The notes: generated by a model from the sequence alone, not told the origin. DNA of 64,000 nucleotides from an uncultured Chloroflexia bacterium (GCA_963797095.1 CAWCNY010000004.1:384001-448000), one strand, 5' to 3'. Positions 1-21,403 are shown, counted from the first letter of the stretch. Numbers and translations: made by a program.

Positions 1-27
1 GCCTACCAAATCAACCTCATCTGCATA

Positions 28-1104
28 TCAATCCGATGCCGAGACAATCTGCAGCCATTCAGGGAACAACGGCAAACTCTCCGACAGGTCGCGTGCCACG
101 GTAACAAAGCTATCACCTGCCACCTTGTTGAAGCCAAGCTGTCGAAAGAGAAGCCGGATCGGCAGATTCCGCTCGTTCACCCTGTACACCGCCCGAACCC
201 CCTTCATTCCCATCTCGATTGCCTCCTTCATTATCCAGAACACCAGCGCTGCCGGTATGCCGCGCCCCTCAACCCTGCATGACAACATAACCAGTTCAAT
301 AAGCCACACCGAAGCAGGCCAGGGTGGTTCCGTATCAACCAGGGCAGCCCCAATCAACCCGTAGTCGCCGAAACGATCCGTCAGCCGGGCTACAGGCATT
401 AACCAGCGCGGGTCATGTAACCGTTCCACCAACTCTTCACGATAATACGTGCGACCCGTAGAATTCAACTGGTGCGTCCTCTCGGTCATTTCAAGCACGC
501 GAGGCAGGTCCGCGTCCGTCGCAGGTGCTATTTCAAGATTCATCTCGCACCACTTGAGGAATTCAGCCCGGCTTCCTCTGAACGATGCTTCACTCTCCCG
601 CCTTATCTCTTCCTGCCTGTACATCTCCGCCCGGTGCTCGCTCTCCAGTGTCCCCGATCCGGCGTTGAAAGCAGGTGAATCCAGCGCCTCCTTCAGTTCA
701 TCAGGCGAAAGCACAAGCACCTGCGGCAGCATGTAGGCCACTTCTGCACGCTCAAATGGGTTATCATCCACGAATGCCAGGGCCTCAAGACCTAAATTCA
801 ACTGATCCGCGATGCGCCGGAGCGACCCGCTCTTAGGCTCCCAACTCACCTGAGGCGCTACGATATGCGCCTTCAACTCAGGATGCGAAAGAAGCAGTTC
901 GCGCATAGAAGGATCGTTCCTGCTGGCCACGCTGCTAACGACCCCGCGCCGCTCCAACTCCTTGATAATGCCAATCAACGACGCGTCCGGCGAGGGTGGG
1001 GCCTCGTTCACATCTCCTTCGACTGCCACTCCGGGCCAGAGCGTATTGTCCAGGTCCCAAACAACGCACTTTATGGGCTTTATGCGTTCCGGCCTAGCAC
1101 TCAC
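28..1104 (-). CDS. FkbH-like HAD-IIIC phosphatase / glyceryl transferase with C-terminal GNAT-like domain
   Basis: VVWDLDNTLW (DxDxT), SVASRND, FVDDNPFER, RTHQLN, DRFGDYGLIG and LSCRV (conserved Cys) are the FkbH-family motifs. Confidence 0.9.
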   Translation of the reverse strand: MSARPERIKPIKCVVWDLDNTLWPGVAVEGDVNEAPPSPDASLIGIIKELERRGVVSSVASRNDPSMRELLLSHPELKAHIVAPQVSWEPKSGSLRRIADQLNLGLEALAFVDDNPFERAEVAYMLPQVLVLSPDELKEALDSPAFNAGSGTLESEHRAEMYRQEEIRRESEASFRGSRAEFLKWCEMNLEIAPATDADLPRVLEMTERTHQLNSTGRTYYREELVERLHDPRWLMPVARLTDRFGDYGLIGAALVDTEPPWPASVWLIELVMLSCRVEGRGIPAALVFWIMKEAIEMGMKGVRAVYRVNERNLPIRLLFRQLGFNKVAGDSFVTVARDLSESLPLFPEWLQIVSASD

Positions 1105-1454
1105 AATCCCGGCCCCGAGTAGCCGCCCCGAACTATGCGGCGCACGCTGGCGTGCCGAGGCTTAAGCCCATCGCGGATCACCTCAATCACCTTGTCGGTG
1201 TTCATAGCCCCGCACGTAAAAATGTCAAGCGCCGCGAACCCTTCGTCCACCCAGGTATGGATCGATATATGCGACTCTGCCAGCAGCAGAAACCCCGTCA
1301 CACCCTGCGGGCTGAACTGGTGAAAGTGGCTGTGCAGAATGGTAGCTCCACCCGCTTCGGCGGCGCGGCACAATAATTCCTCTATAGGCTGCACTGTAGC
1401 CAGAACAGCAGGGTCCTGCACCCATATATCGTACAGTACGTGTCTATTGATCAT
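1101..1454 (-). CDS. speD: S-adenosylmethionine decarboxylase proenzyme (class 1B)
   Basis: HQFSPQGVTG, LLAESHISIHTW (E/S autocleavage site) and DIFTCG. Overlaps both neighbours by 4 bp. Confidence 0.9.
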   Translation of the reverse strand: MINRHVLYDIWVQDPAVLATVQPIEELLCRAAEAGGATILHSHFHQFSPQGVTGFLLLAESHISIHTWVDEGFAALDIFTCGAMNTDKVIEVIRDGLKPRHASVRRIVRGGYSGPGL

Positions 1455-1927
1455 CTTAAGGTCATCTTCATGGTCAGATGTTCGGCCTCGAACCCGAACT
1501 TCCTGTATATCAATCTCATTGGGGTGTTGTTCACGTGTACCTTACCAGTTATCTCACTAACACCCATACCCTTCGCATATTCCATGCCGTGAGCGAAGAT
1601 CGCATCTGCAACTGCGGCACTCTCCGGGTGATCTAGCCCATGTGCCACGGCCAGAGACCGAAATGTAGCGTATCGCTCGCCCGTCAGAAAATTGGTGTTG
1701 AGCGCCACCCACAACCAGCCGGCGACCTTTCCGCTTTCGCGCTCCTCCACCACGAACATCCCGTCCCGGTCGCGCTCCATAGCTTTCGCCAGCTTCTTCC
1801 GGTGCACCTCTGCGTCTACTATCGGGTCGTCCGGGAATGAGATACGCGCAATCTCTATCTCAAATTCCACGATGGCAGACAAGTCTGCCTCGTTCGGAGC
1901 GCGGAATAGATATCGATCTGTGGACAT
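1451..1927 (-). CDS. GNAT-family N-acetyltransferase
   Basis: VAGWLW, RSLAV and VHVNNTPMRLIYRKFGF (motif B). Start moved to ATG 1927 (MSTDRY) because the upstream extension overlaps the previous gene. Confidence 0.8.
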   Translation of the reverse strand: MSTDRYLFRAPNEADLSAIVEFEIEIARISFPDDPIVDAEVHRKKLAKAMERDRDGMFVVEERESGKVAGWLWVALNTNFLTGERYATFRSLAVAHGLDHPESAAVADAIFAHGMEYAKGMGVSEITGKVHVNNTPMRLIYRKFGFEAEHLTMKMTLR

Positions 1928-2054
1928 GAGCAGCAAATGGCCGGTAGGTTTAAGCGAATGGCTAAAATTAAGTATAACGCGATTTGCAAGGCCGCGCACG
2001 CCTGAATCAGCTTCAACAGGAAAGGTCAGACCCTGTGCGCACCTGGTCACGCGC

Positions 2055-3338
2055 TCAATTGCTCCCGCTGCCCCCATTGCGGCTAGAATTGCCGGGCGCA
2101 TGCTTCCGGGAAAGCAGCTTCAAACTGTGCGAACTGCACTGGGGGCATCCGGCCTCTTTCAAAGTCTCGATAGTAGCGTATTGGCCCCCGGCCTGCCCGC
2201 CGACCATCACCTGCGTGCCGCACTCCGTACACACATAACGCCTGATCGTGGGACGAACCTGTCCAGTGTAGATATTCTCCGTGTACTCGCCATCGACAAG
2301 AGGGAGGCTCGCTTCCGTCGTGCGCAGCACATACAGGTCACTCACCCCGGCCAGCACTCCCGCGCCCACATACTCATTGAAGTTCGGCACGAGGCGTTCT
2401 ATCACCAGTCCCATGCGTGCGATTGCGCTTTGCACCTCCACCTGTTCGTCGGGCGGGCGGTGCCCAAAATGCAGGTATATCTTCCCACCCTCCGGCCTTA
2501 TCGCCTGCACGGCCCGCGAAAGAAACAATTCAAGACCGGGCAGCGTATACGGCGGATCTGTCGAAACAGTTTCGAACTCGCCTTGCAAGTCTCGATGCAA
2601 GGGCTGGCGCACATCGTGGTGCACCAACCCAACCAGCACCTCCTCCTCAACAGCGATATCGCGCAGGTGATTCAGGATGCGATTGTCCGTGTCGAGCGCC
2701 ACCACCCGCCGTGCCAGTTTCCCCGAGGGCGAAAGCTCCTTACCCGCCAGCGCGATAGCGGCTGACACCGAGTCGTCATCCCCAAGCACCAGCACGTGCT
2801 TCCCCGCAAGTGCCCCATCTTCATACATCAGCGCCACACGCCGAAGGTTGGTCTCAGGCGTGCAATGGCTCTGGTCCAGCGTTACATCAACACGAGGATT
2901 GCCCATAAAATGCCTGCGAAGCACCTCAAGCAAATTGCTCCACACCCGCCCTTGAGGCGCAACGCCCAGGCCACCGCACTCTGGGCAGATCACAGCGTTG
3001 GTATGCCCGGCCTCCGCATCCTCAGATGACTGCTCAGAGGCACGCAAAGACGCCCAACCCCAGGCGTCACCGATCATACTATCGGCAGCCCCGGTCAGCA
3101 CCAAATGAGGTCCAGCTTCCAGCACACCCGCCTTCTCAAGCTCGCGCCTCACGGCTGTCACCACAGGCAAAGGCAACCGAACCATGCGCGCCAGTGCCCT
3201 CGCAGTCAGCGGCTCAGCGTTTCCGTCGTGCTGCGCCCTATACACCACGCGTAGCACCTCTTCCACCCCCGCAGCCCCCTCCCGAAGTTGCGCCCGCTCG
3301 GCCACCGATTTCAGCAAACTATTCCTATCCGTAAGCAT
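2055..3338 (-). CDS. BpsA-family (bis-aminopropyl spermidine / branched-chain polyamine synthase-like) protein with HTH and Zn-finger motifs
   Basis: LDQSHCTPETNLRR, VLVLGDDDSVS, LDTDNRIL, HDVRQPL, TDPPYT and PNFNEY; CPECGG and CTECG...CPQC Cys pairs. Start at ATG 3338 with AAGGGGA RBS. Confidence 0.8.
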   Translation of the reverse strand: MLTDRNSLLKSVAERAQLREGAAGVEEVLRVVYRAQHDGNAEPLTARALARMVRLPLPVVTAVRRELEKAGVLEAGPHLVLTGAADSMIGDAWGWASLRASEQSSEDAEAGHTNAVICPECGGLGVAPQGRVWSNLLEVLRRHFMGNPRVDVTLDQSHCTPETNLRRVALMYEDGALAGKHVLVLGDDDSVSAAIALAGKELSPSGKLARRVVALDTDNRILNHLRDIAVEEEVLVGLVHHDVRQPLHRDLQGEFETVSTDPPYTLPGLELFLSRAVQAIRPEGGKIYLHFGHRPPDEQVEVQSAIARMGLVIERLVPNFNEYVGAGVLAGVSDLYVLRTTEASLPLVDGEYTENIYTGQVRPTIRRYVCTECGTQVMVGGQAGGQYATIETLKEAGCPQCSSHSLKLLSRKHAPGNSSRNGGSGSN

Positions 3339-3360: not shown

Positions 3361-3445
3361 TCACCAGCGACCAACAACCACGAACCAGGAACCAGAAACT
3401 TGGAACTTGGAACCTGGAACCAAGATCTAGGAACCAGCCAAAACC
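3361..3445. repeat. Degenerate heptamer tandem repeat (GGAACYW-like), intergenic
   Basis: cgaacca ggaacca gaaactt ggaactt ggaacct ggaacca... Confidence 0.75.
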
Positions 3446-4884
3446 AGCGCGGACCTCGGCAAAATAGCAACCTTGAGAGCACCGTTCTCCACCGTATACG
3501 TATGCCCTTTCCACACATCCTTGAGACTGGTGCCATCCTGCAATAGCTCCCCGACTGGTATTGAGGGTTCTTCCGGCAATTCACCCTTGTTGAAGACAGC
3601 AATCACACGGTCCCCATCCAGGTGACGCGCCAGCGCGTACACATTATCTTCCCCATAGAGCGAGCTAAACCGCCCCGACCTGAGCGCCGGGTGCTCGTGC
3701 CGCAAAGCGATAGCCTGCTTGAAGAAGCTCAACGTATCTTCGTCCCACTTGCTATCGTCCCATGGGAACGCTGCCCTGCTCATCGGATCCTTCCCACCCG
3801 CCATCCCTATCTCGTCCCCATAGTAGACACACGGCGCGCCCGGATAGACCATCTGGAATAAGGTCGAAAGCCGGAGCGCACTTCGGTCTCCTGCCGCGAT
3901 TGTCAAAAAGCGGGCCGTATCATGGCTATCGAGCAGGTTTAGCTGCACAGCGGTAACCTCAGGCGGATATAGCTGCAATAGCGCATCTACCTCGCGAGCG
4001 AACTCGCCACCCGCCAGCTGGCGTAACGGCCACAGCGTCGTCCCCTGCACCAGACCGGGGTCCTCAATCTTCTCGATAAAGAACTCTATACACAGCTTCG
4101 TGAATAGGTAGTTCATAACCGCATCAAACTGGTCCCCTTGTAGCCATCGAGAAGCATCTTCCCAGATTTCGCCCACGATGTAGGCCTCCGGATTCGCTCC
4201 TTTCACCCGCCTCCGGAACTCCTGCCAGAAAGCATCGTCGTTTATCTCGCCCGGCACGTCCAACCGCCACCCATCGATCCCGAACTCTACCCAGTGCACC
4301 GCCACGTCGAGCAGGAACTCGCGCACATCCTGCGTGTCGGTATTGAACTTGGGTAGGGCGTGCAGATTCCACCACGCGTCATAATTTGGCGCGCTGTACG
4401 TGTCATACGCGTGTAGCGGCCACCCCTTGATCCTGAACCAATCGAGGTATGGAGAATGGGGGCCATTCTCCAATATATCGTTGAACTGAAAGAAGCCTCT
4501 GCTCGCGTGGTTGAACACCCCGTCCAACACTACCCTCACGCCGCGCCGGTGCGCCTCGTCCAGCAGAGTCCGGAACGCAGCGTTTCCCCCCACCAACGGG
4601 TCCACTTTAAAGTAATCGTGCGTGTGATACCGGTGGTTGGCTGTCGATTGGAATATGGGGTTGAAATAGATCGCGTTCACCCCCAACTCCACCAGGTAAT
4701 CGAGATGCTCGACCACTCCGATCAGGTCGCCACCCTTGAACCCATGAGAGGTAGGCGGGCTGTCCCATGTCTCCAGGTTGCGCGGCTTGTGCAGACTCGC
4801 GCTCTTTGCAAATCTATCAGGGAATATTTGGTAAAAGACGGCATCCCGCACCCATGCGGGCGTCTGCACCGACGTTTCAATCAT
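3427..4884 (-). CDS. GH13 glycosidase (cyclomaltodextrinase / neopullulanase-like)
   Basis: FYQIFPDRF, GGDL, DGVFNH, DGWRLDV, GEIW, LDSHDTAR and YYGDEIGM. Confidence 0.93.
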   Translation of the reverse strand: MIETSVQTPAWVRDAVFYQIFPDRFAKSASLHKPRNLETWDSPPTSHGFKGGDLIGVVEHLDYLVELGVNAIYFNPIFQSTANHRYHTHDYFKVDPLVGGNAAFRTLLDEAHRRGVRVVLDGVFNHASRGFFQFNDILENGPHSPYLDWFRIKGWPLHAYDTYSAPNYDAWWNLHALPKFNTDTQDVREFLLDVAVHWVEFGIDGWRLDVPGEINDDAFWQEFRRRVKGANPEAYIVGEIWEDASRWLQGDQFDAVMNYLFTKLCIEFFIEKIEDPGLVQGTTLWPLRQLAGGEFAREVDALLQLYPPEVTAVQLNLLDSHDTARFLTIAAGDRSALRLSTLFQMVYPGAPCVYYGDEIGMAGGKDPMSRAAFPWDDSKWDEDTLSFFKQAIALRHEHPALRSGRFSSLYGEDNVYALARHLDGDRVIAVFNKGELPEEPSIPVGELLQDGTSLKDVWKGHTYTVENGALKVAILPRSALVLAGS

Positions 4885-4906: not shown

Positions 4907-5539
4907 TCACCCCAGGTTGGCCCTCATCATCTCAACCAGGGTCTTGATCGCTGCCTCGTTGTAGCTGTCCTCGTTCCAGGGGATTATCAGGTCGGCGTAT
5001 CGCTTGCTAGGCTCCACAAACGCCAGGTGCATTGGCCGCACCGTCCGTTTGTACTGCTCTATCACCGATTGCATCGACCTCTCCCGCTCCCCTACGTCTC
5101 GTACCAGCCGGCGTATGAACCTGATATCAGCGTCCGTATCAACGTACACTTTTATGTCGAGTAGCTCGCGTAGCTCAGGCTCAACGAGTATCATTATACC
5201 CTCAACAATGATAACAGGTTGCGGCTCTACACGCACGGTATCGGGTGTTCGCGTATACGTTGCGAAGTCGTACTGTGGCCTCTCCACCACCGACCCTGCC
5301 AGCAGGGCGCGCAAATGCCTGACCAGCAGGTCTGTCTCAAGCGCATTGGGGTCATCCCAGTTCCTGGCGCGTAGCTCTTCTATCGCCACGCCCGGAAACT
5401 CGCGGTAATACTCGTCGTGCGGCAGCAGCGCCACGTTGCCTCGCCCTACCGCCTCCACCAACCGGCCCACCACCGTGCTCTTCCCCGACCCGCTTCCCCC
5501 CGCCACTCCTATGGTAAGAGGAACCTTTCCAGGAGACAT
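4907..5539 (-). CDS. udk: Uridine kinase
   Basis: GVAGGSGSGKST P-loop, IIVEGI, DADIRFIRRLVRD and FVEPSKRYADLIIP. Confidence 0.93.
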   Translation of the reverse strand: MSPGKVPLTIGVAGGSGSGKSTVVGRLVEAVGRGNVALLPHDEYYREFPGVAIEELRARNWDDPNALETDLLVRHLRALLAGSVVERPQYDFATYTRTPDTVRVEPQPVIIVEGIMILVEPELRELLDIKVYVDTDADIRFIRRLVRDVGERERSMQSVIEQYKRTVRPMHLAFVEPSKRYADLIIPWNEDSYNEAAIKTLVEMMRANLG

Positions 5540-5545
5540 ATAAAC

Positions 5546-6703
5546 TTAGTCCCTCACAACGCCGGTAGAGGCGTGCGTGCGCGACGCGCCTCGCCGCGCC
5601 AGCACCCGCTCGTACACATCCAGGGTGTTCCGGGCTGCCCTCTCCCACGTAAACTCGGCGGCGCGCGCAAGGCCAAGCGCACTCAACTCGGCCCCCAGGT
5701 CCGGCTCCATGCACAACCTGTAGAGAGCAGCGGCAATCTCTTCAACCGACAGCGGATCGACCAGCAAGGCCGCGCCATCGGCCACCTCGGCCAGGCCCGA
5801 AGAGCCGGACGTGACCACGGGCGTGCCGCACGCCATCGCTTCCAGCACGGGCAGGCCGAACCCTTCGTATATTGACGGGAAGGCCATCGCCGAAGCAGCT
5901 GAATAGAGGGCAGGTAGGTGCTCAAAAGGTACATAGCCCGTGAACACCACCTCCGACCCCAATCCCAATCGCTCGACCTCGGCATAGATCGGCTCGCAAT
6001 GCCAGCCTGGCTGCCCGACCAATGCCAGCTTGTGCGGCAGGCCGCGCTTGCGCAATTGAGCGAATGCATTAATAAGACGGGTCAGGTTCTTGCGCGGTTC
6101 TATAGTACCCACATACAGGACGTAGGGCCCATTGAGCTTATAGTGAGCGCGCACCATCTCCAGTTGCTCTCGGTCTTCAACCCGCATGAACGCAGGCGAC
6201 ACTGCGTTCATGATTACATGCACCTTGTCGGCGGGAACCTTCAAGAGACGCACAATATCGTCGCGGGCACTCTTCGATACAGTAACGATGGCCTCAGCCC
6301 GCCGCACCACCAATGGAATAAGGGTGCGGTCCAGCAACAGCTTCTTCCACCTGTGCAGCCCGGGGGTGATGAACAGGGTCATATCGTGGATCGTGACTAC
6401 ATAAGGGCATGCGGTGGCAACCGGCGCGAGATAGTTGGGGAAATGACAGATATCGGGGCGTACCTGCCGGAGCGTGCCCGGCAGTACCCCCTGCATCCAG
6501 GCGACCCGTACAGGGAAGAAGCGCCCAATATAGAACCGCTCGTGCGCAAGGCGTGTCCAGGAGCCGTTCACCTCGCGGTTGGTGAACAGGAGGTAATCAT
6601 GCTGGGGAGCCACTGCCATCATCCCCGCGAGGAGATTCTGGGCGTAGTACCCAACGCCCGACTTGAACCCTTGTAGAGCCGAAGCCTCGTATCCAATCAA
6701 CAT
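5546..6703 (-). CDS. Glycosyltransferase family 4 (group 1)
   Basis: SGVGYY, TIHDM, VGTIEPRKN and FPSIYEGFGLPVLEAMACG (EX7E). Start moved to ATG 6703, outside the heptamer repeat. Confidence 0.92.
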   Translation of the reverse strand: MLIGYEASALQGFKSGVGYYAQNLLAGMMAVAPQHDYLLFTNREVNGSWTRLAHERFYIGRFFPVRVAWMQGVLPGTLRQVRPDICHFPNYLAPVATACPYVVTIHDMTLFITPGLHRWKKLLLDRTLIPLVVRRAEAIVTVSKSARDDIVRLLKVPADKVHVIMNAVSPAFMRVEDREQLEMVRAHYKLNGPYVLYVGTIEPRKNLTRLINAFAQLRKRGLPHKLALVGQPGWHCEPIYAEVERLGLGSEVVFTGYVPFEHLPALYSAASAMAFPSIYEGFGLPVLEAMACGTPVVTSGSSGLAEVADGAALLVDPLSVEEIAAALYRLCMEPDLGAELSALGLARAAEFTWERAARNTLDVYERVLARRGASRTHASTGVVRD

Positions 6704-6747
6704 CCCGTCGAGCCTTTCGTCTTCAGTAGTAGCTAGCCAGCTATCAA

Positions 6748-6830
6748 AACCGGGAACTTGGAACTTGGAACTTGGAACTGGGAACTTGGAACTGGGAACC
6801 ACCGCCCCTAGACTACCGACTACCAACTGT
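6748..6830. repeat. Heptamer tandem repeat (GGAACTT/GGAACTG about x7, then GACTACC)
   Basis: Seen directly in the sequence between the GT4 and ligase genes. Confidence 0.85.
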
Positions 6831-8645
6831 TCGCACGCTCGCCGCGCTCGCCGCAAGTAGAAACCAGAAGACTACGTATATGGGTGTCGAGAATAAAAAA
6901 TAGTCTACCACACCATGAGCAAAAAAAGCTACCAGCGCCGATGTAGTCCCGACCCCCAGCAACCAGGAAGGACCTGTGGGCATGCGCAACAGCCCGCGAA
7001 CCGCCCGCCACAGTGCCAGCCCCGCCAACCACAGGAACGCCGCACCTCCCACAATGCCCAGATTAGTGAACATCTCTATGTACGTATTATTCGTAAAGAT
7101 ATTGCGGTTCCAGTCGGTCACACCGGCGTATTCGCCATACAGGTTGCGAAAACCGTCCGGCCCCACTCCCGTGATCGGGTGCGCCAGGAACATCTTCCAG
7201 GCTACCCGCCAGAGCTTGGTGCGCTCAACGCTGGTGGTGTCCGCGATTGCCTCTACATCCAGCGGAGGCGGCATCGCGGACGCAGGTGGCTGCTGGCTGC
7301 CCACTACCTCTGCCACCGCCTCGTTAATTATGTACGCTCGTATCTCACCTTTCATGCCCTGCTTGCGATCAAACCAGGTGACGTTTTCGTGCACCATGTC
7401 CCACTCAAAGCGGTAGCGCCCAGGCTGCGGCGGCGCTTGCACTATAGCCAATACGGAGACGGTTTCACCCGGCGCGACATCGTGCGGCAGAGGTGAGCGA
7501 AGCCCATCAAACACAAGGTATACATTCTCTGTCGCGCTCAGCCAGTGGTAGCTCACGCGCACGGGCAGCACTCCACTGGCAGGCCATTCCATCTGGCCGT
7601 CGTTCCTTAGCGTCACAGGCACGCTGATCACTTCGCGAGCAGACAAATCAGGCAGCGGCTCCGCCGTCACCGTCGCCTTGTACCAGTCCAGGTCGTTCTC
7701 TGTAAGCAGGCGCAGGCGGAACATCGGCTGCGTAGCTAACACCACCGCCCCACCCACCGCCATTACACCCACCACCACCGCCAGCGACCGCCAAACGCGG
7801 CGAAGTTCGATTTCGTAACCTGGCGAGGTTTGAGGCTCAAGAGGGCTATAAGCCTCAACCTTGGACGCTCGCCCCTTGATAATCGCCGCCACCGCAAACA
7901 CAGCCAGCGCAACCACCACCCCACCCAAAGCCGCACGGCTAAACGTCAAGATCAAGGCCACCATATATATCCCGGTCGCCACATACAGCAAAGCCAGTAC
8001 GAAGCGTCGTTTCCCCTCGGACACCTGTCCCTCGCCGAACAAGATGCTAACTAGGTAGCGTGCTGCGAATATCATGGCGATAGAAATCAGCACGGGCAGC
8101 GCCATCTCAAAATACATGGCCGCCCCGTTGGCATACTCGAACGTGCCACTCAGCCGCAGCATCCCACCTACCGTAGTCGGTTGTGGCTTGAACGCTTTCA
8201 GGAACGGCTGGATGTCGAATCCAGGCGCGAACTCCAATAGCCCCAACACGGCGGAAACGAAGCCTGCTCCCACAAATACGGATAGAGCTACAAATAACCT
8301 GCGGCGGCTGCGCAGCGTCTCCCATGCCACCGCATAGACCATCGCCCCCATCACCAACCGGTAACCGAACTGTACCCCCAGTGCCCTGTATTCACCGAAG
8401 ATTGTCGAAACCACGGTCGCGCCCAGCAGCGCCAGAATGGGCCACTTCAAAGGCAGCCTCAACAACTGTTGCCGCGCCCCACTATCCAACACAAGCCTGA
8501 CAACAAATACTCCGGCCAGTACGAACAGTGCTGCTTCCAGGTTTGTGAAGGTCGCCCAAAGAAAACGCCCAAGCGGTGGGTAGCCCGCCTCAAACGGGCT
8601 GAGCGCTACCACCGCCAGCAACACTCCATAGAGCGCCTTGTTCAT
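6813..8645 (-). CDS. O-antigen ligase / Wzy-C family membrane protein with an inserted soluble Ig-like domain
   Basis: RLSGTFEYAN, LTFSRAA, HPITGVGPDGF, NNTYIEM and AHGVVDY; insert VTLRNDG..W...VSYHW...PGRYRFEWDMV. ATGA overlap with the flippase. Confidence 0.8.
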   Translation of the reverse strand: MNKALYGVLLAVVALSPFEAGYPPLGRFLWATFTNLEAALFVLAGVFVVRLVLDSGARQQLLRLPLKWPILALLGATVVSTIFGEYRALGVQFGYRLVMGAMVYAVAWETLRSRRRLFVALSVFVGAGFVSAVLGLLEFAPGFDIQPFLKAFKPQPTTVGGMLRLSGTFEYANGAAMYFEMALPVLISIAMIFAARYLVSILFGEGQVSEGKRRFVLALLYVATGIYMVALILTFSRAALGGVVVALAVFAVAAIIKGRASKVEAYSPLEPQTSPGYEIELRRVWRSLAVVVGVMAVGGAVVLATQPMFRLRLLTENDLDWYKATVTAEPLPDLSAREVISVPVTLRNDGQMEWPASGVLPVRVSYHWLSATENVYLVFDGLRSPLPHDVAPGETVSVLAIVQAPPQPGRYRFEWDMVHENVTWFDRKQGMKGEIRAYIINEAVAEVVGSQQPPASAMPPPLDVEAIADTTSVERTKLWRVAWKMFLAHPITGVGPDGFRNLYGEYAGVTDWNRNIFTNNTYIEMFTNLGIVGGAAFLWLAGLALWRAVRGLLRMPTGPSWLLGVGTTSALVAFFAHGVVDYFLFSTPIYVVFWFLLAASAASVRTVGSR

Positions 8646-10033
8646 GAAGGAAGCTCCAGGTCGGCTGGCGACGAGTTCGAGATCGTCGGCTGCGAATTGC
8701 TTGGGCGCACCTGAGACAACCCATCGGCCCCGGCATGCCCGGCGGCGGCACCGTGCCGCACCACTGCAACAGCGCATAGCGCAAATAGCGCAACTTCGGT
8801 TGCAATCGTCGCCAGCGCCGCCCCTACCAACCCCAGCGTAGGTATCAACACTACGTTGGCCCCCACGTTCACAAAAACCGAAGTCAACGTGAACAGCGCA
8901 TACAGCCTCGGCTTATCGACCGCGATCAGCGCATTAGTCAACCCATAGTTCAAATACATAGGCACACAAGCCAGCGCCAACCAGGCAAGTATCGGCCCGG
9001 ACGCCGCATACACCGGGCCATACAGAACGCCGACGATCGGCACCGCCAATATCGCCAGCACTGAGGTAGCTAGCACACCCAGCCCAAGCAGCACAAGCAT
9101 CGTTTGCCCAAGCAGGTCGCGTAACACCTTCGTATTCGATCCATCCACGCGCGCCGACCGGGCCAGCAAAGGGAAAGTTGCAGCCAGCAGCACACCAGGC
9201 ACTATCAAGGAAGGCTCGAACAGTTTGTAGGCCACATTGTACACGGCCAACGCTTCATGCCCCAGGATCGGCGGTATCAGCAAATTGTCCACACGAAACG
9301 AGATAATGCTGAAAATCACCCCGATACCCACCGCCGTAGGTTGCGTCAACGAGCCGCGCCAGTAAGCCCAATCTATGCGCCACAGCGGATGCACGTAGCG
9401 CAGCAACAGCCTGTAGCTCACCCCGATAGCCGCCAGTGTCGCGAGCACAAAGGCAATCGCCAACCCCCACACCCCCGCGCCCACCAGCAACAAACCCACG
9501 CCAAGCGCCAGGGTGATCCCCCGCGCTACCAACCCGGTCCACGCCTCCCATCCCAATCTACCAAGCGCACGAAAACAGTTAGCCAGGTAGTCCAGCCCTG
9601 TGCCCAGCACCATCGCCAGCCCCACCACCAGCAAAGCCCCCTGGTTGCCCACAGGCTCAACGTACACCGCCCCCGCGATCAGCAGCATAGCAACCACGGA
9701 TAACCCACTCTTGAGCAGCAGCCCGCCCCCGATCAAGCTCCCCGCCGCCACCGGATCGCCAAAGCGTTGCTTCCCAGCTTCACCCGCGATCAGGAGCCGC
9801 GCGAGCTCTCTCTGCACGAACATTTGCAGCCCAAAGTCCGCCACCTGTGCCAGCATGAAACCGATGCTAAGCGCGAACGTGAAATCCCCGAAATCGCCCT
9901 GTGACAACTGGCGCGCGGCGACCCACAACAAGCCATATTGTAACAATCTGCCCGTAAGGTCGGATCCCAGCTTCGCCAGCGCTCCCCGCCCCTTGATTAT
10001 GCGTGCGAAATTGAGGATCATTGAACCAAACAT
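8642..10033 (-). CDS. Polysaccharide flippase (Wzx / MOP family)
   Basis: 12-14 hydrophobic segments; ADFGL, RVDNLLI, AVYNVAYK and LIPTLGLVGAALAT. Start at 10033 is supported by TGaTACAAT 7 nt upstream. Confidence 0.85.
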   Translation of the reverse strand: MFGSMILNFARIIKGRGALAKLGSDLTGRLLQYGLLWVAARQLSQGDFGDFTFALSIGFMLAQVADFGLQMFVQRELARLLIAGEAGKQRFGDPVAAGSLIGGGLLLKSGLSVVAMLLIAGAVYVEPVGNQGALLVVGLAMVLGTGLDYLANCFRALGRLGWEAWTGLVARGITLALGVGLLLVGAGVWGLAIAFVLATLAAIGVSYRLLLRYVHPLWRIDWAYWRGSLTQPTAVGIGVIFSIISFRVDNLLIPPILGHEALAVYNVAYKLFEPSLIVPGVLLAATFPLLARSARVDGSNTKVLRDLLGQTMLVLLGLGVLATSVLAILAVPIVGVLYGPVYAASGPILAWLALACVPMYLNYGLTNALIAVDKPRLYALFTLTSVFVNVGANVVLIPTLGLVGAALATIATEVALFALCAVAVVRHGAAAGHAGADGLSQVRPSNSQPTISNSSPADLELPS

Positions 10034-10082
10034 GATCAGGATTGTATCATAAAGTAGGCGATTCTTTACCAACCACATCTCT

Positions 10083-10667
10083 ATGAAGCTTCCCCTGACA
10101 CTCCCCAGGTCACGCCCCGCCCCGCACAACGTCGAAGGCTTGGCATTCGACTGCGAATTGGCCGCCCGAATTCGCGACGGCGACCGCACAGCGTTCGACC
10201 GCCTTGTCGAGCGCCATCTCCCGCGTGTCAATCGCTACTTGCAGCACAGATTGGGCCTGGGACATGACGAATTGGCCCTCAGTGTCGCCTCCTCTACCTT
10301 CGAAGAAGCCCTGCACAAGCTCGGCCCCTACGCCCGCAAGACCGCCACTACCCCCATGGAGTTCTGGCTGCTCAGGCTTGCCGAACGCAACCTCGCCAGG
10401 CAACACCACCCCCCCAAAGCAAAAGCGTCCGAGCCACCAACCACCACACCAACCGAGGGCGACGACCTCCCTACCGTCAGGACGGCTATGCAAACCCTCC
10501 CCAGGCGATATTCTTCAGTCCTTACCCTGGCTCTATTCGAGGGTATGACCGCCGAATCGATTGCGTTCGCATTGGGCATGAGCCAGGCGCGTGCCATGCG
10601 TCGGTTGCGGGCAGCCCTGCGACAAATAGGGAAACGATTGGTGGCCCAATCCGAGGGAGATAGCTAG
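10083..10667 (+). CDS. ECF-type RNA polymerase sigma factor (divergent)
   Basis: GDRTAFDRLVERH, FWLLRLAERNL (region 2); LPRRYSSVLTL...EGMTAESIAFALG (region 4). Confidence 0.7.
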   Translation: MKLPLTLPRSRPAPHNVEGLAFDCELAARIRDGDRTAFDRLVERHLPRVNRYLQHRLGLGHDELALSVASSTFEEALHKLGPYARKTATTPMEFWLLRLAERNLARQHHPPKAKASEPPTTTPTEGDDLPTVRTAMQTLPRRYSSVLTLALFEGMTAESIAFALGMSQARAMRRLRAALRQIGKRLVAQSEGDS

Positions 10668-19037: not shown

Positions 19038-20072
<1,035 letters not shown>

Positions 20073-20094
20073 TTGAAAGTCAATGATCGGTAAC

Positions 20095-20180
20095 CGGTTG
20101 CAGAAACCTGGAACTTGAAACTTGAAACCGTAACCCTCCATCTCCCCCGACTACCGATCACCAACTTCCAACTACCCGCA
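20095..20180. repeat. Heptamer tandem repeats (GAAACTT-like and GACTACC-like) in the gap-pgk spacer
   Basis: gaaacct ggaactt gaaactt gaaaccg ... cgactac cgatcac caacttc caactac. Confidence 0.65.
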
Positions 20181-20185
20181 AAACT

Positions 20186-21403
20186 ATGGACAAAATGACT
20201 CTACGCGACGTGGATGTCGCGGGCAAAAAGGTGCTGGTGCGGGTGGACTTCAATGTGCCGCTCGATGAGAACGGCGCGATCACAGATGATACACGCATTC
20301 GTGCCTCGCTGCCAACCATCCAATATTTACTTGAACAAGGAGCAGCGGTAATCCTGATGTCGCACCTGGGCCGTCCGAAGGGTGGTCCCAATCCGAAATA
20401 CAGCCTCGCGCCGACCGCCGTGCGGCTTTCTGAAATGCTTGGTGGCAATATTCCCGTCGAAATGGCCCACGATTGCACCGGACCGGAAGTGAGAGAACAG
20501 GCTTATAACCTGAAACCGGGAGAGATACTTATACTCGAAAATCTCCGGTTCCACTCGGAAGAGGAAGCCAACGACGGTGATTTCGCCCGGCAACTTGCGG
20601 ACCTCGCGGAAATCTATGTAAACGATGCATTTGGGTCTGCCCACCGGGCGCACGCCTCAACCGAAGGTGTGGCCCACTACCTGCCCGCAGTGGCCGGCTT
20701 CCTGATGGAGCGTGAGATCGGCGTTATGGGCGACGCTTTGGAGAACCCGAAGCGCCCATTCGTCGCCATTCTCGGTGGCGCTAAGGTCTCGGATAAGATG
20801 GGCGTGATAGGCAATCTGCTCGGCAAAGTTGATAGCTTAATCATCGGCGGCGGCATGGCAAACACCTTCCTGAAAGCACTTGATGTCGAAATAGGTGCTT
20901 CGCTCGTGGAGAACGATCGGTTGAAGGATGCTGAGGAATTGGCCGGTCTGGCAGGCTTGCGAGGCGTTGCCCTTCTGTTACCCTCGGACGTAGTAATAGC
21001 GGATAGCTTCAGCGCCACTGCCGACCACAAGGTAGTGGACGCACACAACGTGCCTGAAAGCGGTGGCGCTGAAGGCTGGCGTATTATGGACATCGGGCCT
21101 GACTCTTCCTCACGATATGGCGAGGTAATCCGAGCAGCGAAAACGGTGGTCTGGAATGGCCCGATGGGTGTGTTCGAAATGGAGCCGTTTTCGCATGGTA
21201 CGCTGGCCGTTGCCCAGGCCGTATGCGATGCGACGGAAGCAGGCGCGACCAGCATAGTAGGTGGTGGCGACTCTGTTGCTGCCATCGACAAGATGGGACT
21301 TGCCGACAAAATTACCCACATCTCGACAGGCGGCGGAGCGTCGCTGGAGTTCCTCGAAGGGCGCGAGCTGCCCGGCGTGGCCGCGCTCAACAAGAAAGAA
21401 TAG
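20186..21403 (+). CDS. pgk: Phosphoglycerate kinase
   Basis: [34 protein letters not shown] and STGGGASLE. Confidence 0.98.

Follow-up and report, generated by a model that had tools for sequence, protein, structure and literature searches.

A five-gene operon of an uncultured Chloroflexia bacterium joining a BpsA-like enzyme, SpeD and a GNAT to an FkbH-type loader and its carrier protein: a candidate pathway for acylated aminopropyl amines

An operon in which genes for polyamine-type aminopropyl transfer stand beside those of an FkbH-type glyceryl-loading system lies at the left end of a 64,000-nt stretch of DNA from an uncultured Chloroflexia bacterium (GCA_963797095.1, CAWCNY010000004.1:384001-448000; G000:C4:384001-448000 in our own numbering). 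This whole stretch is referred to here as the window. The source genome comprises 6.0 Mb on 8 contigs and is 93% complete, and in sequence searches the homologues of the operon proteins carry Chloroflexia labels. The unit consists of five genes on the minus strand, in the order BpsA-like, GNAT, SpeD, FkbH-like and acyl carrier protein (ACP), and spans about 3.6 kb. Its features, with positions counted from the first letter of the window unless a contig is named, are the following:

2055..3338, minus strand: BpsA-like enzyme, a predicted aminopropyltransferase dependent on decarboxylated S-adenosylmethionine (dcSAM), 427 aa (PF01861 BpsA_C, E 3.8e-45)
1451..1924, minus strand: small GNAT, a predicted N-acyltransferase, 157 aa (PF00583, 22.6 bits)
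1101..1454, minus strand: class 1b SpeD, S-adenosylmethionine decarboxylase (AdoMetDC) proenzyme, 117 aa (PF02675, E 1.3e-34; TIGR03330, 121.7 bits)
28..1104, minus strand: FkbH-type loader, 358 aa (TIGR01686, 236.8 bits; TIGR01681, 52.3 bits)
1..27, minus strand: start of the spacer behind the FkbH stop codon, the ACP gene lying just outside the window
G000:C4:383699-383971 (L003:15699-15971; 29-301 nt to the left of window position 1), minus strand: ACP, 90 aa (PF00550, E 3.6e-11)
3376..3437, no strand assigned: tandem repeat of a heptamer, within the 88 nt that separate a GH13 gene from the BpsA-like start (Tandem Repeats Finder, period 7, 8.9 copies)

An earlier note, made from the window alone, had described four co-oriented genes (BpsA-like, GNAT, SpeD and FkbH-like), the last three overlapping by 4 bp, and had pointed to the sequence left of position 1 as the place where a carrier might be found. 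The four open reading frames (ORFs) are indeed present on the minus strand, the overlaps fall at 1451-1454 (GNAT/SpeD) and 1101-1104 (SpeD/FkbH), and the ACP gene appears 29 nt past the window edge, its start being 56 nt beyond the FkbH stop codon on the same strand. The BpsA-like gene begins with an ATG at 3338, preceded by AAGGGG, and an alternative upstream TTG would extend its ORF to 3602. In the case of the GNAT, the ATG at 1924 agrees with the starts of its homologues, the ORF itself being open to 2101; if the gene begins at 1924, a gap of about 130 nt separates it from the BpsA-like gene.

The conservation of this gene set was studied in loci collected by scanning an alignment of 14 BpsA-like proteins against one genome per species. 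In this way, 597 stretches were matched, of which 368 encode a relative; the analysis then used the 79 best distinct loci, gene presence being scored by tblastn at E <= 1e-3. SpeD is found in 59 of these loci, the GNAT in 52, FkbH in 34 and the window-type ACP in 26; a hidden Markov model of this ACP also gave 26 loci besides the window's own. Since a divergent ACP lies behind the longer alphaproteobacterial FkbH in all seven loci of that type, and the window-type ACP accounts for the other 26, FkbH has an ACP directly behind it in 33 of the 34 cases, the exception (L012) ending inside FkbH at a contig end. The GNAT accompanies FkbH in 31 of the 34, and the remaining three are cut by the locus end. 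The complete five-gene cluster is present in 9 loci of Chloroflexia, 12 of Actinomycetota and 4 of Alphaproteobacteria, and five Binatia loci lack only SpeD. Shorter forms also exist: loci of the Bradyrhizobium/Xanthobacteraceae type carry only SpeD, the BpsA-like gene and the GNAT, and those of Bathyarchaeota the BpsA-like gene and SpeD, with or without the GNAT.

The association is closer still in some lineages, where the BpsA-like and GNAT proteins are fused. Such fusions were confirmed by Pfam in two Bathyarchaeota loci (L046 and L062) and in one of Blastocatellia, Acidobacteriota (L042); a single ORF runs across both matches in L047, L051 and L060, and L067 may be a further fusion. Gene overlaps of 1-17 nt are seen in other phyla. 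Clustering of all the ORFs in the loci yielded no other gene family common across phyla, the neighbours being lineage-specific (ribosomal proteins, QueT, transporters, a putative methyltransferase, PEP mutase). In a quick tree of 80 BpsA-like sequences, used solely for this purpose, gene context follows clades, and four separate clades contain the five-gene form. Because the gene arrangement recurs in other phyla, it is not due to chance. The earlier note had proposed a functional link between aminopropylation and FkbH-type glyceryl loading, to be looked for in the gene neighbourhoods of other genomes, and this proposal gains support from the ACP past the window edge, from the existence of BpsA-GNAT fusions and from the synteny across Chloroflexia, Actinomycetota, Binatia (without SpeD) and Alphaproteobacteria.

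Some of the lineage-specific neighbours can be recorded in their own right. Directly upstream of the BpsA-like and SpeD genes, four Bathyarchaeota loci and one labelled Patescibacteria (L032, L040, L044, L053 and L059 between them) carry a gene for a PF00156 phosphoribosyltransferase, an enzyme with a possible role in recovering adenine from the by-product methylthioadenosine. In L069 (14-2634 and 7938-9080), the one Aurantimonas locus in which the flanking genes were scanned, a DegT/DnrJ aminotransferase and an AMP-binding enzyme are encoded upstream of the BpsA-like gene, and a radical SAM enzyme behind the GNAT. The AMP-binding family recurs in four loci (L069, L036, L037 and L056), in all of which FkbH measures 571-607 aa and has an N-terminal extension with no Pfam match at E <= 0.01. 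In Binatia (L020, L021, L023 and L045), a fusion of phosphoenolpyruvate (PEP) mutase with a nucleotidyl (NTP) transferase and a squalene-hopene-cyclase-like protein are encoded upstream of the BpsA-like gene, on the opposite strand.

The BpsA-like protein matches PF01861 with 154.5 bits, against a cut-off of 27, and its closest solved relatives are the BpsA enzymes of Thermococcus kodakarensis (Tk-BpsA; 5xnc, E 2.9e-23) and Thermus thermophilus (Tth-BpsA). The same two enzymes are the top Foldseek matches of an AlphaFold2 (AF2) model (predicted local distance difference test score, pLDDT, 90.8), over about 370 columns that include the N-terminal winged-helix-like domain. This domain is followed by a CxxC motif, a Rossmann domain with the motifs GDDD and TDPPYT, and a C-terminal Cys4 zinc ribbon. 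Residues G186, D188, D261, P262, Y323, C370, C398 and C401 are invariant in 40 sequences, and C373 and D187 nearly so; GDDD corresponds to G186-D187-D188-D189, the last residue being nearly invariant in the 14-row alignment (A1). The winged helix was considered as a sign of an enzyme directed at DNA or RNA, and this idea was dropped: it gives no argument for a nucleic-acid target, because DnrK-type small-molecule O-methyltransferases, like the true BpsAs, align with the model over a similar length (about 370-380 columns).

In true BpsA, according to a 2026 review (PMC12979288), the GDDD motif positions the aminopropyl group of dcSAM, and Tk-BpsA needs, besides this motif, Asp225, Glu259, Tyr290 and Tyr316 round the acceptor, together with an acidic cluster in the C-terminus (Glu339 to Glu345) which serves as carrier of the aminopropyl group. 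In a HMMER alignment, once a 20-residue tag offset is allowed for, D225 and Y290 have conserved counterparts (D261 and Y323, respectively), but E259 is replaced by a proline (Y316 lies beyond the alignment); nor is E259 conserved across the BpsA-like family in the alignment of 14 sequences. The acidic carrier cluster is absent as well, the alignments of 14 and 40 sequences containing no conserved acidic run in the C-terminus, and in its place there are a conserved YTG..P..R.Y motif and the Cys4 ribbon (C370, C373, C398 and C401). Because GDDD, D261 and Y323 are maintained but E259 and the acidic tail are replaced, dcSAM binding has very likely been kept, and it is probably in the acceptor side and the transfer mechanism that the protein departs from true BpsA.

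Thus, the window enzyme shares with the BpsAs (EC 2.5.1.128) of T. kodakarensis and T. thermophilus (5xnc and 6j27) the Pfam family, the two-domain layout with a winged-helix-like N-terminus and CxxC, the GDDD motif, the Asp of DPP and the Tyr of FNxY, but it is only about 25% identical to them and differs in the proline at the position of E259 and in the C-terminus described above. It is set apart, too, by its linkage to GNAT, FkbH and ACP and by its hosts, which are soil Chloroflexia, Actinomycetota, Binatia, Alphaproteobacteria and Bathyarchaeota; branched-chain polyamines and BpsA are, according to PMC12979288, predominantly a matter of thermophiles.

The assignment of SpeD is straightforward. 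Its TIGR03330 score (121.7 bits) is well above the cut-off of 75.65, the enzyme of Thermotoga maritima (1tlu) is matched with E 4e-23, and the segments LLAE|SHISIHTW and FTCG are identical in both proteins. The cleavage site maps to E60|S61 via the split chains of 3iwb, and these segments hold what we take to be the self-cleaving Glu-Ser site and the catalytic His and Cys. Profile searches of the 93%-complete genome revealed no other AdoMetDC and no other BpsA_C protein than those of the operon, and they gave no canonical SpeE, no nspC and no member of the arginase/agmatinase family. These results suggest, without proving it, that spermidine is not the acceptor of the BpsA-like enzyme. PF01564 (Spermine_synth) gave only two weak matches, of 34.6 and 28.6 bits, inside ORFs of 587 and 791 aa. 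These matches, at G000:C2:988284-988670 and G000:C3:166288-166650, may belong to fused spermidine-synthase-like proteins that could also draw on the dcSAM of the operon.

Enzymes of the FkbH family form a glyceryl thioester from 1,3-bisphosphoglycerate on a Cys residue and hand it to a holo-ACP. The window protein reaches 236.8 bits on TIGR01686 (cut-off 146.65), its residues 11-326 covering profile positions 3-320 of 323. It is composed of an N-terminal HAD-IIIC phosphatase half (DLDNT) and a C-terminal half with a GNAT fold, which contains the invariant Cys276 (SCRxxGRG). Across 31 sequences, one of them an FkbH-like protein of Streptomyces, D17, D19, T21, S61, K91, D113, S275-C276-R277, R281 and N313 are invariant, and the HAD-IIIC motifs (DxDxT, S/T, K and DD) are provided by the first six of these residues. 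The SCR Cys through which, in the words of the earlier note, FkbH loads glycerate is present here as C276, and a catalytic role has reportedly been assigned to this residue in work on OzmB. In the AF2 model (pLDDT 92.0), the N-terminal half resembles 3slr and the C-terminal half best matches RimI and phosphinothricin acetyltransferases, with Cys276 directly preceding the RxxGRG loop, which in GNATs is the site for the pantetheine pyrophosphate. These features fit the family role, i.e., formation of the glyceryl thioester and its transfer to holo-ACP. The neighbouring ACP has an Asp-Ser attachment site (D44-S45) that is invariant in 23 ACPs. Across the operon, the catalytic residues are intact: the HAD residues and the SCR Cys in FkbH, the Glu-Ser, His and Cys sites in SpeD, the Asp-Ser in the ACP and the dcSAM motif in the BpsA-like protein.

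FkbH/ACP pairs are suppliers of glycerate units to polyketide and tetronate assembly lines. The window system shares with the FkbH, OzmB and ZmaN-type glyceryl-ACP systems of such pathways a TIGR01686 score far over the cut-off, the HAD motifs, the SCR Cys and a dedicated downstream ACP (its FkbH-like protein is 47% identical to those of Streptomyces and Micromonospora), but it differs in its partners, which here are SpeD, an aminopropyltransferase-like protein and a GNAT. No polyketide synthase (PKS), nonribosomal peptide synthetase (NRPS) or acyl-CoA dehydrogenase, and none of the FkbI/FkbK dehydrogenases or the FkbG methyltransferase, was detected in 10 ORFs scanned downstream (about 9 kb) or in 21 kb upstream, where three scanned ORFs have no Pfam match. 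The genome encodes a second FkbH-type protein, of 791 aa, at L083:8572-10947 (G000:C3:625572-627947), with 323 bits on TIGR01686 and a PF21211 FkbH_N domain; its neighbours (an acyltransferase, a CDP-alcohol phosphatidyltransferase, a CTP_transf_1 protein, a hexapeptide transferase and an Acetyltransf_6 protein) look like those of a lipid or envelope locus.

The small GNAT of the window is a weak member of its superfamily, with 22.6 bits on PF00583 (cut-off 20.7) and 23.7 on PF13302, which is below the cut-off of 25.4, its fused homologues reaching 68.5 bits on PF00583. A profile of 29 homologues matched YycN best in the PDB (1e-12), the polyamine acetyltransferases Dpa (1.4e-9), SpeG and PaiA being matched with values between 1e-9 and 1e-6; an ESM Atlas look-up returned only generic GNAT clusters. 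The family is recognisable by a conserved N-terminal FEIEIAxISFP and by invariant R8, D14, E22, W70, T81, S90 and N133. Its relation to the polyamine N-acetyltransferases SpeG, PaiA and Acinetobacter Dpa is therefore a partial one: they are among the solved GNATs that the profile matches, and the family is genetically tied to polyamine chemistry, but the window protein is no closer to them than to uncharacterised GNATs, FEIEIAxISFP is specific to its own family, and its motif A is degenerate.

This last point is of interest, since motif A forms the loop for the CoA pyrophosphate. In the window GNAT it reads AHGLDHPESAA, and none of the 32 GNATs encoded beside an FkbH gene contains the pattern [QR]xxGx[GA]. 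In contrast, where the locus is uncut and FkbH is absent, each of the 16 GNATs has retained an R/Q and a Gly-rich loop, five of them matching the strict pattern. This contrast is a hint that, where FkbH and ACP are present, the GNAT takes its acyl group from the ACP. GNAT folds that use acyl-ACP to acylate an amine exist in the LuxI-type N-acyl homoserine lactone synthases and the FeeM-type N-acyl amino acid synthases; these serve only as a mechanistic analogy, a sequence relationship having been neither sought nor found. A prediction of the GNAT and ACP complex, made without controls, scored 0.06 against a mark of 0.32, and is evidence neither way.

With regard to the surroundings of the operon, the genes past the ACP are convergent and unrelated, coding for a PD-(D/E)XK nuclease, a response regulator, a histidine kinase and an ABC-2 transporter. 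When the operon was scanned for promoters and terminators, it proved no richer in them than expected from shuffled sequence: there were 2 promoter-like sites, compared with an average of 1.7 after shuffling, and no terminators. A search of sequencing runs with the operon returned no RNA run, the sole DNA run being one soil metagenome that shares 0.17 of the sequence words. The heptamer repeat upstream of the BpsA-like gene, whose unit is AACCAGG, has a counterpart at 6748-6799 with the unit GGAACTT, in the gap upstream of the GT4 gene, both repeats having 7-9 copies. Since the AACCAGG type has 42 more matches on six contigs of the genome, the repeat at 3376-3437 belongs to a dispersed family of short tandem repeats. 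Glyceraldehyde-3-phosphate dehydrogenase and phosphoglycerate kinase, which make or consume 1,3-bisphosphoglycerate, are encoded 16 kb from the operon (19059-21403), and in Aureimonas psammosilenae a triosephosphate isomerase gene adjoins the cluster (L061:4152-4973); both proximities are possibly coincidences.

Taking these families into account, we put forward, tentatively and with somewhat less than even confidence, the reading that the five genes form a single pathway, in which dcSAM-dependent aminopropylation of an amine would be coupled to N-acylation by the GNAT, the acyl group being, in this lineage, a glyceroyl delivered by the FkbH-loaded ACP. Thus, SpeD, whose family assignment is firm, would first produce dcSAM. 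The BpsA-like enzyme would then move the aminopropyl group to an amine acceptor, probably other than spermidine. The FkbH-like protein, if it follows the chemistry of its family, would use 1,3-bisphosphoglycerate to form a glyceryl thioester on Cys276, later passed to the phosphopantetheine arm of the ACP. Finally, the small GNAT with its decayed CoA-pyrophosphate loop would transfer the glyceroyl group from the ACP to a primary amine of the aminopropylated compound, leading to an N-glyceroyl (2,3-dihydroxypropanoyl) aminopropyl-amine. In those lineages that possess only the BpsA-like enzyme, the GNAT and SpeD (the Bradyrhizobium type and Bathyarchaeota), the GNAT would draw on an acyl-CoA instead, acetyl-CoA being the probable donor, and FkbH and ACP would represent an add-on that changes the acyl group.

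Several points weigh against this proposal. Each of its chemical steps, and the product with them, is read from family membership, what was observed being the families themselves, the intact active sites, the ACP and the linkage across phyla. The C-terminal half of FkbH has a GNAT fold of its own and could hand on the acyl group by itself, with no need for the small GNAT. The contrast in motif A comes from few independent lineages, and the GNATs of Binatia, despite the presence of FkbH and ACP, keep a Gly-rich loop (WRGGETG). The missing spermidine genes are no proof of absence, because the genome is 93% complete. Moreover, the Chloroflexia operon is preceded on its own strand by Wzx, Wzy-like and GT4 genes, and the flanks of the Aurantimonas locus (DegT aminotransferase, AMP-binding enzyme and radical SAM enzyme) could likewise mean that the target is a glycan or some other compound, and not a free polyamine.

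This genomic setting is the basis of a first alternative, which we regard as unlikely, namely that the operon decorates the cell envelope by modifying a surface glycan or lipid, for instance by aminopropylating and/or glyceroylating an amino sugar or a head group. The co-directional block upstream of the operon in the window would suit this function, since it encodes a Polysacc_synt/MurJ-like flippase (8642-10231), a Wzy_C membrane protein with an Ig-like insert (6813-8777), a family 4 glycosyltransferase (GT4; 5546-6856), a uridine kinase (4907-5539) and a family 13 glycoside hydrolase (GH13; 3427-4884), and the same upstream gene order is kept in six Chloroflexia loci (L004, L005, L006, L007, L010 and L016). 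The Aurantimonas flanks, with an AMP-binding family seen in four loci, and the PEP-mutase/NTP-transferase fusion near the Binatia operons point in the same direction. However, none of these neighbours is common to different phyla, and the loci of Bathyarchaeota and of the Bradyrhizobium type adjoin ribosomal-protein or other unrelated genes. In addition, Pfam scans of the five core proteins give only domains of soluble enzymes or carriers, transmembrane segments and signal peptides not having been searched for.

A second alternative, in our view just as unlikely as the envelope one, divides the operon into two loosely linked modules. The BpsA-like enzyme, SpeD and the GNAT would produce an N-acetylated aminopropyl polyamine by means of acetyl-CoA, and FkbH and ACP would serve another acceptor, or the GNAT-fold half of FkbH would itself transfer the glyceroyl group. 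In agreement with such a division, the three-gene core occurs without FkbH and ACP for 18 of 50 GNATs examined (16 of these 18 from uncut loci), the solved relatives of the GNAT profile include the acetyl-CoA-dependent polyamine acetyltransferases Dpa, SpeG and PaiA, and the GNAT fold in the C-terminal half of FkbH is compatible with its acting alone. Against it, SpeD is placed between the GNAT and FkbH, with 4-nt overlaps on both sides; where the DNA is complete, FkbH and ACP never occur without the GNAT (31 of 34 loci, the other 3 being cut); and no other consumer of glyceryl-ACP (PKS, NRPS or FkbI/K/G-type) was found within the distances scanned around the operon, the three upstream ORFs lacking a Pfam match included in that scan.

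It is also conceivable, although very unlikely, that the BpsA-like enzyme alkylates a hydroxyl group of glyceryl-S-ACP with the aminopropyl group of dcSAM, the GNAT then capping or releasing the product. An analogy for such an O-aminopropylation is offered by BtaA in the synthesis of betaine lipids. O-nucleophiles would be within the reach of the BpsA family, because true BpsA makes aminopropyl esters on its own carboxylates, as described in PMC12979288, and in the window protein the acidic carrier tail bearing them has been replaced by a zinc ribbon. However, no precedent was found in the literature searched, and since the BpsA-like enzyme, the GNAT and SpeD occur without FkbH and ACP in several lineages, the acceptor is more likely to be a common metabolite.

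That the BpsA homologue simply makes N4-bis(aminopropyl)spermidine, next to unrelated genes, is the least probable option of all, since, in spite of its PF01861 membership, its GDDD motif, its best structural match to Tk- and Tth-BpsA and the source annotations ('bis-aminopropyl spermidine synthase family protein'), E259 and the acidic C-terminal cluster of Tk-BpsA are not conserved, canonical SpeE, nspC and agmatinase were not detected in the 93%-complete genome, the cross-phylum synteny and the GNAT fusions speak against unrelated neighbours, and the carriers belong mostly to soil or other non-thermophile lineages, as opposed to the thermophile-dominated distribution of branched polyamines given in PMC12979288. 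The earlier note had named a lack of synteny, or just this ordinary synthesis, as what would speak against its proposal; what was found is synteny, and a protein without the acidic carrier in a genome in which those spermidine genes were not detected.

Regarding novelty, no paper joining FkbH with polyamines or with S-adenosylmethionine decarboxylase was found in the literature searched (subscription-only papers and supplements lay outside this search), and nothing relevant was retrieved there for combinations of aminopropyltransferase, ACP, GNAT and dcSAM, or for glyceroyl with spermidine. Thus, the parts belong to known families, and it is their combination, the altered C-terminus of BpsA and the use of FkbH and ACP without a PKS that appear to be undescribed. 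A wider claim can be formulated, which we regard as possible but rather doubtful: that N-glyceroyl aminopropyl-amines would constitute a new class of metabolites, in whose synthesis an FkbH/ACP pair would act for the first time as a glyceryl donor independently of PKS or NRPS, a small GNAT deprived of its CoA loop would work as an acyl-ACP:amine transferase and a zinc-ribbon relative of BpsA would supply the aminopropyl acceptor, transfer having distributed the whole module among soil Chloroflexia, Actinomycetota, Binatia and Alphaproteobacteria.

BpsA-type enzymes are treated, in PMC12979288, as thermophile-specific makers of branched polyamines. The group described here is a large sister group, encoded in no fewer than 368 of the scanned species genomes, with another C-terminus, fixed partners and mostly non-thermophile hosts. 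Among its carriers there are cultured organisms, i.e., Aureimonas glaciei, Aureimonas psammosilenae, Aurantimonas and relatives of Bradyrhizobium and Rhodopseudomonas, so that the idea is directly testable. In these operons, the FkbH/ACP pair is connected to chemistry of the polyamine type, and no synthase is visible nearby. Should an acylated aminopropyl amine indeed be the product, this would add a branch to polyamine metabolism and would give carrier-bound glycerate a new role.

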